A DNA stretch of 64,000 nucleotides from Mycobacteriales bacterium (GCA_039648995.1 JBBWZH010000045.1:2821-66820); one strand, 5' to 3'; counted from the first letter of the stretch, positions 131 to 2,948 are shown. The notes: generated from the sequence alone by a model not told the origin. Translations and numbers: made by a program.

Positions 131-1288
131 TCACATCATGAAGTCGACAGTGCCGCGGGCGGGCGGCGGCGCGAGGTCGCCGTCGGCCATGACCAGAACC
201 CGTTCCCGGTCGTGCTGCACCTGCAGCGCCACCGGTCGACCCGTCTCGCAGCGGAACGGCACGTCGAACGTCTGGATCGCCTGCCGCCAGTGGTTGCCGC
301 GCTGCTCGGGCCCGGTGGACAGCGATACGCCCGGCGCCAGGTCCAACTCGAACCAGATCGCGATCGCGTCGCAATCGCCGTTCGCCGCCGGCACCGCCTT
401 GATCACCTCGCGCGCCGGCGGGCAGTCGACGTTGAAGTCGACGTCCAGCAGCGGGAAGGGCGACGTGAGCGCCTGGTGCGGGTAGTTCTCCAGATAGGTG
501 TCGAAGTACTCGAGGGACCTGAACTGGTTGAACGTGCTGACGTCGAACCCGCACGCGGTCGACACGTAGTTGTGCGACCGGATGTTGTCGCTGGATACCA
601 ACTGCCCCCACAGGCGTGCCCGCCCCGGCAGGATTCTGGCGCCGTCGGCGAGCAGTTCCCGGCGGGCGTGCTCGACGGTCGGCAGCACATTCTCGCCGAG
701 CAGCCCGCAGTCGAAGATCTCGGTCACGAGCACGTCGGCGGGCGCCGGCAGATCGACCCCCACCCGCAGGTTGGTGGACAGGCCGTCGACCACCCGGACG
801 CGGTCCTGGTACCCGTTCGCCGCGACGATCTGCCGCGCCACGTCCGCGATCACCGGCTCGGCCTCGCAGCTGATGACGAGCCCCGCCCCCGCCTGCGCGG
901 CGAGCAGGGCCAGCAGGCCGCTGCCGGTGCCGATGTCGAGAACCAGATCGCCGGGGCGCACCGTCGCCGCGATCGCCGCCTCGTACGCGGCGTTGCGCCG
1001 GTGGTCGTTGATCATGGCGAAGTGCCACCGTGGCACCAGGCGGCGGATCACGCGGTTGAGCAGCCGCCCCGGGATCGGGTCGTCCGCACCGGCGAGCGAC
1101 TCGGCGCGGGCCAGGTAGCCGATGGCGGCGGAATAGTCGTGCTGCGCTATCGCCGCGCGGCCGAGCGTGAGAAGCGCCGCCACCGAGTGGGCCTCGCCGG
1201 CGGTCTGTAGCGACAGCGACGAGTCGGCGACGATGCCGTTCGATCCGGCGAGGGTGGACTCGGATGCAGCCTGCACTGAATGCCTCAC
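131..1288 (-). CDS. Class I SAM-dependent methyltransferase, protein-arginine-methyltransferase (PRMT)-like; candidate free-arginine guanidino N-methyltransferase
   Basis: ORF 131..1492 trimmed to the GTG at 1288, which forms a GTGA overlap with the Rieske stop. SAM motif I is VLDIGTGSGLLALLAA and the acidic post-I is VISCE. The double-E-like loop TEIFDCGLLGE has the same E-x8-E spacing as PRMT1 SEWMGYCLFYE. GNHWRQA is a THW-like loop. Confidence 0.75.
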   Translation of the reverse strand: MRHSVQAASESTLAGSNGIVADSSLSLQTAGEAHSVAALLTLGRAAIAQHDYSAAIGYLARAESLAGADDPIPGRLLNRVIRRLVPRWHFAMINDHRRNAAYEAAIAATVRPGDLVLDIGTGSGLLALLAAQAGAGLVISCEAEPVIADVARQIVAANGYQDRVRVVDGLSTNLRVGVDLPAPADVLVTEIFDCGLLGENVLPTVEHARRELLADGARILPGRARLWGQLVSSDNIRSHNYVSTACGFDVSTFNQFRSLEYFDTYLENYPHQALTSPFPLLDVDFNVDCPPAREVIKAVPAANGDCDAIAIWFELDLAPGVSLSTGPEQRGNHWRQAIQTFDVPFRCETGRPVALQVQHDRERVLVMADGDLAPPPARGTVDFMM

Positions 1289-1608
1289 CTGGCTAGGACC
1301 ATCGTGTGGGTCGCTACCGGCGCGGCCTGCTCCGGAGCGGGGATGTAGGCGATCACCTGACCGCCGCGTTGCACGGTCGAGACGCTCCGGGCGCACAGCC
1401 GGTCCACCCGGAACGTGCTGCCGTGCCAGGGGCACCGCAACCGGCCCTCCTGCACGTCTCCCAGGTGCAGTGGACCGCCGCGGTGCGGACACCTGCTGGT
1501 GATCAGGTGCACCGCGCCCTCGCGGAGCATCACGAAGTAGTGGTCCTCGCCGAGGATCACCGTGTTCTGCTCGGGCCAGTTCAGCTCGACGCGGACCAGC
1601 GTGCTCAC
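1285..1608 (-). CDS. Small Rieske [2Fe-2S] protein (ferredoxin/NirD-like)
   Basis: 107 aa with CPHRGGPL ... CPWHGSTF (CxH / CxxH Rieske ligands). GTGA overlaps at both ends (1605-1608 and 1285-1288). Confidence 0.85.
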   Translation of the reverse strand: MSTLVRVELNWPEQNTVILGEDHYFVMLREGAVHLITSRCPHRGGPLHLGDVQEGRLRCPWHGSTFRVDRLCARSVSTVQRGGQVIAYIPAPEQAAPVATHTMVLAR

Positions 1609-2948
1609 CGCTCCGGGCTCACGACGACGGTCGCGTCCGCCGCGGCCTGCATGCCGTACAGGCGACCCCGCGGGACGTGCACCGCGTGGCCGGCGGTCAG
1701 GCGGAGTGGTGTGCCGGTGGCGCTCCAGTACACGTCCACCTGGCCGCCGCGGACGTTGAGCAGAGTGCCCTCAGTGGCGACCTGCGTCTCAAACGGAGTA
1801 CCCGCGGTCAGCTCCCTCGTCGTGCCGGCCACGGTCGACGGGCTGAACGCGTGCGTCTCGGGTATCCACCGGAGTTGGGCGAGCAGGTCGGCGTCGGCGA
1901 GCGCGCCAATCAGCCTAATCTCCTCTACACCCCGAATCAGCCCGTGCGCGGCCACCCGGCCGTGTTTCCGGGCGAGTGGGAGGAGTAGGTCATGCACCGC
2001 CATTCGGCCGTGATGCTGGTCGATGTGTGCGTGCTCATCGCAGTACCTGGTATCGACGCCGTCGCCGTAGACCTTGCCCAGCGTGCCGGCGAGCGCGGCG
2101 AACCACGGCGCGAACGTGGCCTCCAGCAGCGCCATCGCACCTATGTACCGGAAGAACTCGGTGCGGTTGCGGGTGACCGTGTAGAAGTAGTTGTTCGCGG
2201 CGATCGAGGTGGGCAGGTAGAAGAACCAGTAGTGGTGCGGCTCGGCGGCCATCCCGATGCTCGCGCAGAGGTCGGTGAACAGCGTGCTGTGTTTGGCCGC
2301 GAAAACGCCGTAGCCGAACTCGTCGACAAAGATCTTGAAGAGTTCGCTCTGTTCGGGGCCGAATGCGCCGCCGAGGTTCTGCGACATCGCGGTCGCCTCG
2401 GTCAGGCCATCCAGAGCCATTTGGGCTATAAGCATCTCGGCCGCACGGCGTGGGTCGGCGGCGGCCGCGATCGCGTCCAGCACCGGCCGCTCCGCGTGGA
2501 CCGCCTCGTCGATCGAGCGCTCCAGGTGCGCCAGCGCGGCGTCCGGCTCCCACGAGCCCGTGACCTTGACGCTGTCCTCCAGAAAGCCCAGCGCGTACCG
2601 CTCTACGGCAGGCCTCGCCTGATCGGCCAGTTGGCGGTTCCGGGTGCTGTAGAACGCCTCGAAACTGCGCTCCTTGCCGTGCAGCCCGTCCGCCGGGAGA
2701 AATAGCGCATCGCTCTCGTAGACGTTCATCAGAAAGCGATTGGCCAGGAGGCTGGAGTCGGAGGCGAACTCCGCCTCGGTCAGCGGCCGGGCCCAGTCGA
2801 TCGCGGCCAGCCGGGCGACGTCCAGCGGCCTGTGGTAAGGGTTGTGGCGAATGTACGGCGATGGCTGCGCGCGATATGGATCGCTGCTGGCGAAATCCGC
2901 GACAGCTGCCGTGACGAGGTCTGCCGCCGGTAGCGCGACATTGGGCAT
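1605..2948 (-). CDS. Heme-oxygenase-like diiron oxidase (iron-containing redox enzyme family) with a cupin-like C-terminal tail; SznF-like architecture
   Basis: 447 aa. The central region carries a carboxylate/His pattern (DEFGYG, AKHS, LLEATF, DEHAHIDQHH, the last giving HxxxDxxH). The C-terminal ~90 aa is beta-rich (GTLLNVRGGQVDVYW...TAGHAVHVPRG). ATG at 2948 is preceded by AAAGGA. Confidence 0.7.
   Translation of the reverse strand: MPNVALPAADLVTAAVADFASSDPYRAQPSPYIRHNPYHRPLDVARLAAIDWARPLTEAEFASDSSLLANRFLMNVYESDALFLPADGLHGKERSFEAFYSTRNRQLADQARPAVERYALGFLEDSVKVTGSWEPDAALAHLERSIDEAVHAERPVLDAIAAAADPRRAAEMLIAQMALDGLTEATAMSQNLGGAFGPEQSELFKIFVDEFGYGVFAAKHSTLFTDLCASIGMAAEPHHYWFFYLPTSIAANNYFYTVTRNRTEFFRYIGAMALLEATFAPWFAALAGTLGKVYGDGVDTRYCDEHAHIDQHHGRMAVHDLLLPLARKHGRVAAHGLIRGVEEIRLIGALADADLLAQLRWIPETHAFSPSTVAGTTRELTAGTPFETQVATEGTLLNVRGGQVDVYWSATGTPLRLTAGHAVHVPRGRLYGMQAAADATVVVSPER

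Follow-up and report, generated by a model that had tools for sequence, protein, structure and literature searches.

To our knowledge, SznF is the only enzyme that builds an N-nitrosourea, and its homologues are used in genome mining as markers for N-nitroso products. Substitution of the SznF cupin residues H407, H409 or H448 leads to accumulation of a dihydroxylated intermediate and no nitrosourea (2024 review, PMC11705231), and Tyr459 is the proposed proton relay (PMC11705231). In the same enzyme, D185 contacts the alpha-ammonium group, a role shown by mutagenesis, E189 is the seventh iron ligand, and D185, A190 and M193 were tied to N-methyl-arginine binding by docking and mutagenesis (PMC7848743). 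Here, we describe a three-gene operon in a 64 kb stretch of high-GC actinomycete DNA (GC ~75%; Mycobacteriales bacterium, JBBWZH010000045.1:2821-66820), referred to below as the window. Its sequence agrees at 100% identity with a contig from a metagenome-assembled genome of the Mycobacteriales (P0001). The operon encodes a SznF-like oxidase, a small Rieske protein and a methyltransferase. It represents a variant, so far uncharacterised, of a known system, with a family, fold and partnership that are known or traceable to streptozotocin biosynthesis. Its interest lies in two points: the oxidase belongs to a natural, clade-wide "cupin-dead" SznF lineage, and a Rieske partner accompanies the great majority of the family members examined.

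The operon comprises three co-directional open reading frames (ORFs) on the minus strand, running from 2948 to 1605, from 1608 to 1285, and a third ending at 131 (ORF map). The encoded proteins are as follows:

1605..2948, minus strand: SznF-like three-domain oxidase, 447 aa, with an N-terminal domain, a heme-oxygenase-like diiron N-oxygenase domain and a C-terminal cupin-fold domain free of metal ligands
1285..1608, minus strand: small Rieske [2Fe-2S] protein of 107 aa, proposed to supply electrons to the diiron site
131..1276, minus strand: SznE-like arginine N-methyltransferase dependent on S-adenosylmethionine (SAM) and resembling protein arginine methyltransferases (PRMTs), 381 aa from GTG 1276 or 385 aa from GTG 1288

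Judged by sequence and predicted structure, the oxidase is homologous to SznF along its whole length and has the same three-domain architecture, with an N-terminal dimerisation domain, an HDO domain (heme-oxygenase-like diiron oxygenase) and a C-terminal cupin fold. A phmmer search against the PDB matched it to SznF 6m9r across residues 9-440 at ~33-36% identity, and the E-value of 6e-87 places this similarity far beyond chance. The protein also matched Pfam Haem_oxygenas_2 (E = 4e-25), and NCBIfam offered no model for it. An AlphaFold model computed with an alignment of 96 homologues as input reached a predicted local distance difference test (pLDDT) of 93.5 and a predicted template-modelling score (pTM) of 0.93. 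Its best Foldseek match was SznF 6vzy_B (TMq 0.89, ~462-465 columns), in agreement with the SznF-like assignment of the original prediction, and residues 365-445 formed the beta-rich tail described there, being all-beta in the model. The single-domain heme-oxygenase-like diiron oxygenases (HDOs) HrmI and RohS superposed on this model at only ~0.5. Furthermore, RohS matched the oxidase weakly (E = 2.5e-12, residues 103-314 only), compared with the full-length SznF match. Membership of a different HDO clade devoid of a cupin fold, a possibility raised at the outset, was therefore not what we found; the cupin fold is present, but without its metal site.

All seven residues of the SznF 3-His/4-carboxylate diiron set (E189, E215, H225, E281, H311, D315 and H318) are kept in the oxidase. 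Mapping of alignment columns onto SznF numbering placed the relevant positions as follows:

2385..2414, minus strand: auxiliary helix motif LDGLTEATAM, in which D180, E184, A185 and M188 correspond to SznF D185, E189, A190 and M193
2289-2327, minus strand: diiron ligands E210 and H220
2112-2129, minus strand: diiron ligand E276
2010..2036, minus strand: EHAHIDQHH, the HxxxDxxH pattern, with diiron ligands H306, D310 and H313 corresponding to SznF H311, D315 and H318

The last of these contains the diiron-type pattern that had first drawn attention to the 447-aa protein. Among the 120 nearest homologues, the diiron ligands were kept at 839 of 840 positions, the lone exception being an Arg at the H225 position (P0028). 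The predicted N-methyl-arginine pocket, represented by D185, A190 and M193 in SznF, is likewise retained in full, and D180, E184, A185 and M188 of the oxidase were invariant in the 96 aligned homologues.

The C-terminal domain differs from that of SznF, where the three-histidine cupin site is intact. Both cupin motifs are degenerate in the oxidase:

1767..1793, minus strand: cupin motif 1, FETQVATEG (SNTHCHDGD in SznF), with H407 replaced by Q389 and H409 by A391
1647..1667, minus strand: cupin motif 2, GRLYGMQ (NRLHGAN in SznF), with H448 replaced by Y431

The three cupin histidines are thus all absent, and the HMMER and MAFFT alignments were concordant in placing Q389, A391 and Y431 at their positions. 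The oxidase also ends at residue 447, short of the Tyr459 tail of SznF, and has no Tyr in its own tail. Its sole Pfam cupin match was sub-threshold (13.9 bits against a cutoff of 26.7), a score that fits a degenerate cupin and is no proof of one alone. The same replacements were observed in a profile of 36 close homologues with 58-87% identity to the oxidase, hereafter the query clade. Position 391 was Ala in 33 members and Ser in three, position 431 was Tyr in 33, Phe in two and His in one, and the C-terminal domain of the clade held zero conserved histidines. This clade-wide pattern argues that the replacement is neither an alignment accident nor a one-off. The ranking of the domains by mean pairwise identity was also inverted. 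Among 24 SznF-proper sequences, in which the His triad is invariant, the cupin was the most conserved domain (79.8%, with 71.7% for the HDO domain), whereas in the 36 members of the query clade it was the least conserved (43.8%, with 71.4% for the HDO domain).

The query clade, with ~40 protein clusters, was monophyletic in 100 of 100 neighbour-joining bootstraps. In this tree it grouped with another clade, whose members come from Actinomadura, Spirillospora and Dactylosporangium and keep only one or two cupin histidines. Members of this second clade (L028-L073, with Actinoallomurus also represented) have 42-48% identity to the oxidase and a cupin pattern of R-x-H/Y ... H/Y, and their genes accompany ATP-grasp ligases. 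The full cupin His triad is retained in a cyanobacterial relative (L072), and ChmM-type proteins keep the three histidines as well (PMC11177257). Since SznF, the cyanobacterial protein and the ChmM-type proteins all retain them, loss in the query lineage is the parsimonious reading. Additionally, Kutzneria viridogrisea (L076, L005) and Solihabitans fulvus (L004, P0189) each carry an intact-triad paralogue in a szn-type cluster and a His-less paralogue in a non-ribosomal peptide synthetase (NRPS) cluster of the same genome, a coexistence that argues for distinct functions. The original prediction had allowed for either an N-N or an N-O bonded arginine-derived product. With the three cupin His residues all absent, the N-N (nitrosourea) outcome appears unlikely and the N-O (N-hydroxyguanidine) outcome plausible.

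On balance, we consider it somewhat probable that the operon is a self-contained arginine-modifying module making N-hydroxy- or N,N'-dihydroxy-N-methyl-arginine, without nitrosation, for an adenylation enzyme. By homology to SznE, the methyltransferase would convert free L-arginine to N-omega-methyl-L-arginine. The conserved ligands and pocket suggest that the diiron domain would then carry out one or two hydroxylations, giving N-delta-hydroxy- and subsequently N-delta,N-omega'-dihydroxy-N-omega-methyl-L-arginine. From their strict co-occurrence, we infer that the Rieske protein would re-reduce the diiron centre at each turnover and would itself be reduced by a housekeeping reductase. The C-terminal cupin, with its fold kept and its metal site gone, would perform no oxidative rearrangement to an N-nitrosourea, leaving the N-hydroxylated guanidine as the product. 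In the window's genome, this product would probably be activated by a co-conserved stand-alone adenylation enzyme and incorporated into a short non-ribosomal peptide; in related genomes, an amino-acid permease or an ATP-grasp ligase accompanies the triad instead. N-hydroxyarginine units do occur in natural products, such as argolaphos (PMC12866846).

Several points weigh against this proposal. The chemistry proposed for the clade is predicted from sequence and model comparison, with SznF as the basis for both the number and the positions of the hydroxylations. A manual Stachelhaus code for the adenylation enzyme was judged too unreliable to give its substrate and left unused. The nearby genes of the window include no reductase for the Rieske protein. 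As the neighbour-joining tree has no root, it is parsimony that supports "loss" of the histidines. Finally, F386, T388, V399, G402, T411, G420, P426 and an R-L-Y-G motif are invariant or nearly so in the C-terminal domain, which is still partly constrained and may have some role.

The alternative that concerns the diiron domain is over-oxidation of the guanidine, either to a nitroso- or nitro-guanidine or, in the manner of nitric oxide synthase, to nitric oxide (NO) or nitrite plus N-methyl-citrulline. The HDO N-oxygenases RohS and HrmI do perform six-electron amine-to-nitro oxidations (PMC13133933, PMC13108848), and a dedicated electron donor would sustain multiple turnovers. In that case, the cassette would donate nitrogen oxides or make a different oxidised guanidine. 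We regard this account, including its consequence for the cassette, as unlikely: the oxidase shares its ligand set and pocket with SznF, whose diiron domain stops after two hydroxylations, and it is far nearer to SznF (6e-87) than to RohS (2.5e-12). Moreover, N-methylation would be pointless for a plain NO or nitrite generator, and no nitrite-using N-N ligase was recognised among the cluster genes.

The residual constraint on the C-terminal domain raises another alternative, in which the metal-free cupin was repurposed for a metal-independent transformation of the dihydroxyguanidine, or as a binding or hand-off domain, and the final group is one undescribed so far. The cupin fold is retained with high model confidence, T388, G402, G420, P426 and R429-L430-x-G432 are invariant across clades, and the domain is undeleted in most full-length sequences of the clade. 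However, it is also the domain with the lowest conservation (43.8%), several clade members are C-terminally shorter (339-407 aa, P0037-P0041), and Gly and Pro predominate among the invariant residues, as structural upkeep predicts; repurposing is accordingly improbable to a similar degree. We give an equally low chance to the more specific idea that the His-less cupin, the diiron domain and the Rieske donor together turn N-methyl-arginine into a guanidine-derived group unseen in natural products. On this idea, a minimal set of genes in many Streptomyces, encoding a regulator, the oxidase, the Rieske protein, the methyltransferase and a permease, would release the compound as a free bioactive amino acid. 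The Rieske donor would in addition be the physiological reductant long sought for SznF-family and other HDO enzymes, whose assays currently rely on phenazine methosulfate and NADH.

The proposed hydroxylating module was further compared with its relatives through gene neighbourhoods, for which 71 genome loci with the oxidase family were fetched. A Rieske gene was found within 2 kb of the oxidase gene in ~65 of the 71 loci, almost all of which also carried the methyltransferase, in the order oxidase-Rieske-methyltransferase or Rieske-methyltransferase-oxidase. Most of the exceptions were truncated contigs or two acidobacterial loci. By tblastn, both partner genes were detected in L037; the gene calls of L077 (P0084 look-up) show neither. 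In addition, three SznF-proper loci were examined, from S. nojiriensis, Kutzneria viridogrisea and the myxobacterium Pendulispora albinea. In each of them, the genes for the methyltransferase, the SznF homologue and the Rieske protein are consecutive, with ATP-grasp ligases next. The original prediction had described the Rieske gene as inserted into the pair and as absent from the szn cluster. Neither statement held, given that a Rieske gene lies directly downstream of the SznF homologue in every SznF-proper locus examined. The cyanobacterial relative likewise carries a Rieske gene. Because the Rieske gene is found in the three szn-type loci, in ~65 of 71 related loci and in the cyanobacterium, the three-gene set would most simply be ancestral to the whole family, with only the gene order being particular to the window.

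This shared partnership, together with SznF homology and fold over the full length and the public label "nitrosourea synthase" (NCBI, JGI), could suggest that the oxidase is a genuine nitrosourea synthase, delivering the N-nitroso-citrulline intermediate of SznF to the NRPS. We consider this very unlikely. All three iron ligands of the cupin are gone, as is the Tyr459 tail, the equivalent substitutions in SznF abolish nitrosourea formation (PMC11705231), and the cupin is the fastest-evolving domain of the clade. A separate intact-triad paralogue is also present in Kutzneria and Solihabitans. In addition, AGT/AlkB-type alkylation-repair genes, which are described in the literature for szn clusters, occur near both actinomycete szn-type loci (L075, from S. 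nojiriensis, and L076), unlike in the window, where Pfam scans returned no AGT or AlkB-type repair genes. The same scans returned no ATP-grasp ligases in the window, which has NRPS genes instead.

The middle protein was identified as a Rieske protein, as initially proposed, through a Pfam match (E = 1.3e-11) and the ligand motif CPHRGGPLHLG...CPWH at 1423-1491, whose ligands are conserved in 35 of 37 family members. Its AlphaFold model (pLDDT 93.6) was closest to Rieske ferredoxins and Rieske domains, and no catalytic domain was present; by sequence motif and model, the protein is a member of the Rieske ferredoxin class. The Foldseek matches (TM 0.5-0.6, E >= 2e-3) are too weak for assignment to a specific Rieske ferredoxin subfamily. 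The protein has 39% identity to the szn-type Rieske of S. nojiriensis (E = 2e-15). Gene order would make the szn-type protein 'SznG', a name that is our own deduction and was not found in the literature; searches of the searchable texts for SznF with a Rieske protein, or for SznG or StzG, turned up nothing relevant, and the function of the szn-type Rieske is undescribed in them. In toluene 4-monooxygenase (T4MO), the diiron hydroxylase receives its electrons from the Rieske ferredoxin T4moC. By analogy, and from the adjacency of the two genes in ~65 of 71 loci, the Rieske protein may be the physiological reductant of SznF-family oxidases; assays of the related HDO enzyme RohS use phenazine methosulfate (PMS) and NADH.

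It is hardly probable that the Rieske protein is instead a NirD-like accessory or regulatory subunit or the partner of a different enzyme: public sources do annotate it as "nitrite reductase small subunit", its structural matches are moderate and no reductase gene is nearby, but its cluster ligands are strictly conserved, its gene always adjoins the oxidase gene, and often overlaps it, whichever gene order is seen, the two families have matching distributions, and the T4moC-T4MO pair is a direct precedent.

The methyltransferase carries the PRMT hallmarks that had been read from its sequence, namely the SAM motif VLDIGTGSG (908-943), the E-x8-E loop TEIFDCGLLGE (692-724) and the THW-like NHWRQ (281-295). 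It matched Pfam PrmA and PRMT_C (34.5 bits against a cutoff of 27 for the latter), as well as PRMT9 and PRMT7 structures at ~1e-44, and weak TPR-like matches were observed in its N-terminal region. The proposed likeness to SznE was upheld by 42% identity (E = 2e-74, likewise far beyond chance) to the PRMT-like protein of S. nojiriensis, whose gene adjoins an 87%-identical SznF homologue. Monomethylation of free L-arginine is suggested by this identity, which is its sole support.

Gene boundaries are consistent with tight linkage of the three genes. An AAGGA Shine-Dalgarno motif lies 8 nt upstream of the oxidase ATG, and the Rieske start overlaps the oxidase stop by 4 nt (GTGA at 1605-1608), an overlap of identical length to that in Kutzneria albida. 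Translational coupling through a second GTGA overlap had also been claimed for the Rieske/methyltransferase junction. The GTGA is indeed present at 1285-1288; the coupling by overlap, on the other hand, probably does not apply, as GTG 1276 is the likelier methyltransferase start than GTG 1288. The former is favoured because GGTGAGG lies 6 nt upstream (1283-1289) and gene callers choose the equivalent start both here and in K. albida; the junction would then have an 8-nt gap instead of an overlap, with the genes still tightly linked. The elements flanking the operon and the two genes transcribed divergently from it are listed below:

69..118, minus strand: perfect inverted repeat of 18 bp around a 14-nt loop, 13 nt past the methyltransferase stop, probably the hairpin that terminates the operon
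2949..3248, no strand: divergent intergenic region of 300 bp separating the cassette from the operon of the next two genes (ORF map), the presumed promoter region
3249-4592, plus strand: major facilitator superfamily (MFS) transporter (Pfam), co-conserved with the cassette
4589-6259, plus strand: stand-alone NRPS-type adenylation enzyme (Pfam; PDB match 6akd_A, 1e-105), co-conserved with the cassette

A single sigma-70-like match was found in the intergenic region, at 3209-3237 on the plus strand.

The NRPS context foreseen for the cassette was observed, since it lies among NRPS genes and beside the MFS and adenylation genes. Orthologues of these two genes, with 64-71% identity, accompany the cassette in K. 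albida, K. viridogrisea, Solihabitans fulvus and a Kutzneria metagenome-assembled genome. In these four Pseudonocardiales-type loci, the cassette, transporter and adenylation enzyme recur together at 55-71% identity, with a Streptomyces antibiotic regulatory protein (SARP) added in Kutzneria. Across the clade, 13 loci pair the triad with an amino-acid permease and often nothing more than a SARP regulator, three with an ATP-grasp ligase and MFS transporter, and four to five with MFS, adenylation and NRPS genes. These varying downstream partners fit a portable building-block module whose product would be exported, ligated or loaded onto an NRPS by the host.

Beyond the MFS and adenylation genes, the cluster contains genes with condensation-thiolation-thioesterase (C-T-TE), adenylation (A) and condensation-adenylation-thiolation (C-A-T) domains, a short-chain dehydrogenase/reductase, a type II thioesterase and a SARP regulator. 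Within it, a minus-strand gene of ~470-550 aa at 11074-12738 shows coding-type GC content at third codon positions and no Pfam match; the plus-strand ORF at 11119-12777 was rejected as a shadow of a minus-strand gene. Next to the SARP regulator, positions 19809-23671 encode a ProB-like amino-acid kinase with a PUA domain, a ProA-like aldehyde dehydrogenase and a class I/II aminotransferase, which may form a second building-block pathway of the same cluster. A kinase and an aminotransferase are also found near the cassette in Labedaea rhizosphaerae (L007). At 23646-27068 of the window lie 5-oxoprolinase-like PxpA/B/C genes, followed by an arginase-family gene (26019-27068). DcsB, an arginase homologue of cycloserine biosynthesis, acts on N-hydroxy-arginine; the arginase-family gene was considered as a DcsB-like partner of the module and rejected, being absent from all related loci.

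Further along, a complete type II Wadjet anti-plasmid system was identified on the minus strand at 27218-35696 (PADLOC E-values 0 to 1e-126):

35696-34308, minus strand: JetD (PADLOC)
34234-32687, minus strand: JetA (PADLOC)
32690-31425, minus strand: JetB (PADLOC)
31444-27218, minus strand: JetC (PADLOC)

Type VII (ESX) secretion-like genes were observed at 37163-38581, 41280-45674 and 59944-63999. They encode one protein resembling WXG100 or type VII secretion signal proteins and two large FtsK/SpoIIIE (EccC-like) ATPases, one of which has an FHA domain.

The window locus and the ~40 related protein clusters represent a sizeable branch of the SznF family in which the N-oxygenase half is kept and the N-N-forming half has been lost. 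The database label "nitrosourea synthase" is probably wrong for the His-less clade; at P0001, P0241 and related loci, both this label and "nitrite reductase small subunit" look like over-transfer. The near-universal Rieske companion, szn-type clusters included, points to a natural redox partner for enzymes routinely assayed with artificial mediators. The interchangeable downstream partners (permease, ATP-grasp ligase and NRPS) also make the module a tractable target for new arginine-derived metabolites.

Compared with known systems, the operon is closest to the szn type. The oxidase has in common with SznF/StzF (PDB 6M9R, 6VZY) its architecture, fold, seven diiron ligands, the D185/A190/M193 residues and its PRMT-like and Rieske neighbours, but carries Gln, Ala and Tyr at the three-histidine cupin site and lacks the Tyr459 tail. 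The cupin, the most conserved domain of SznF-proper, is the least conserved of the query clade. The szn-type gene order is methyltransferase-oxidase-Rieske, whereas that of the window is oxidase-Rieske-methyltransferase, and the szn-type context of ATP-grasp ligases and AGT/AlkB resistance genes is replaced by an NRPS context. With SznE/StzE, the methyltransferase has in common the SAM motif, double-E loop, THW-like loop and PRMT_C barrel, and it differs in its longer N-terminal region. The Rieske protein has the CPHRGGPLHL...CPWH motif and the oxidase adjacency of its szn-type counterparts, but is shorter (107 aa against 117-122 aa) and is encoded between the oxidase and the methyltransferase.

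Among more distant systems, T4moC and T4moH offer the example of a small soluble Rieske protein shuttling electrons to a carboxylate-bridged diiron oxygenase, like the pair proposed here. T4MO, however, uses a ferritin-like diiron scaffold and has its cognate reductase in the operon, whereas the window oxidase has a heme-oxygenase-like scaffold and no reductase was seen in the window. The single-domain HDO N-oxygenases RohS and HrmI (~300 aa, without a cupin) are not of the same type as the window oxidase. The heme-dependent guanidine N-hydroxylases AglA, DcsA and ChmN also make N-hydroxy-arginine units (PMC12866846, PMC11177257), but their fold and cofactor are unrelated to those of the oxidase, and no methylation is involved. 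ChmM/ChmN of chalkophomycin and GrbD/GrbE of gramibactin provide SznF-family proteins in NRPS clusters that modify the guanidine of arginine, as proposed for the window (PMC11177257). The ChmM type is nevertheless a mirror image of the oxidase described here: in ChmM-type proteins the diiron ligands are lost, the cupin histidines are kept and a separate heme enzyme N-hydroxylates (PMC11177257), whereas the window oxidase keeps its diiron ligands and has lost the cupin histidines.

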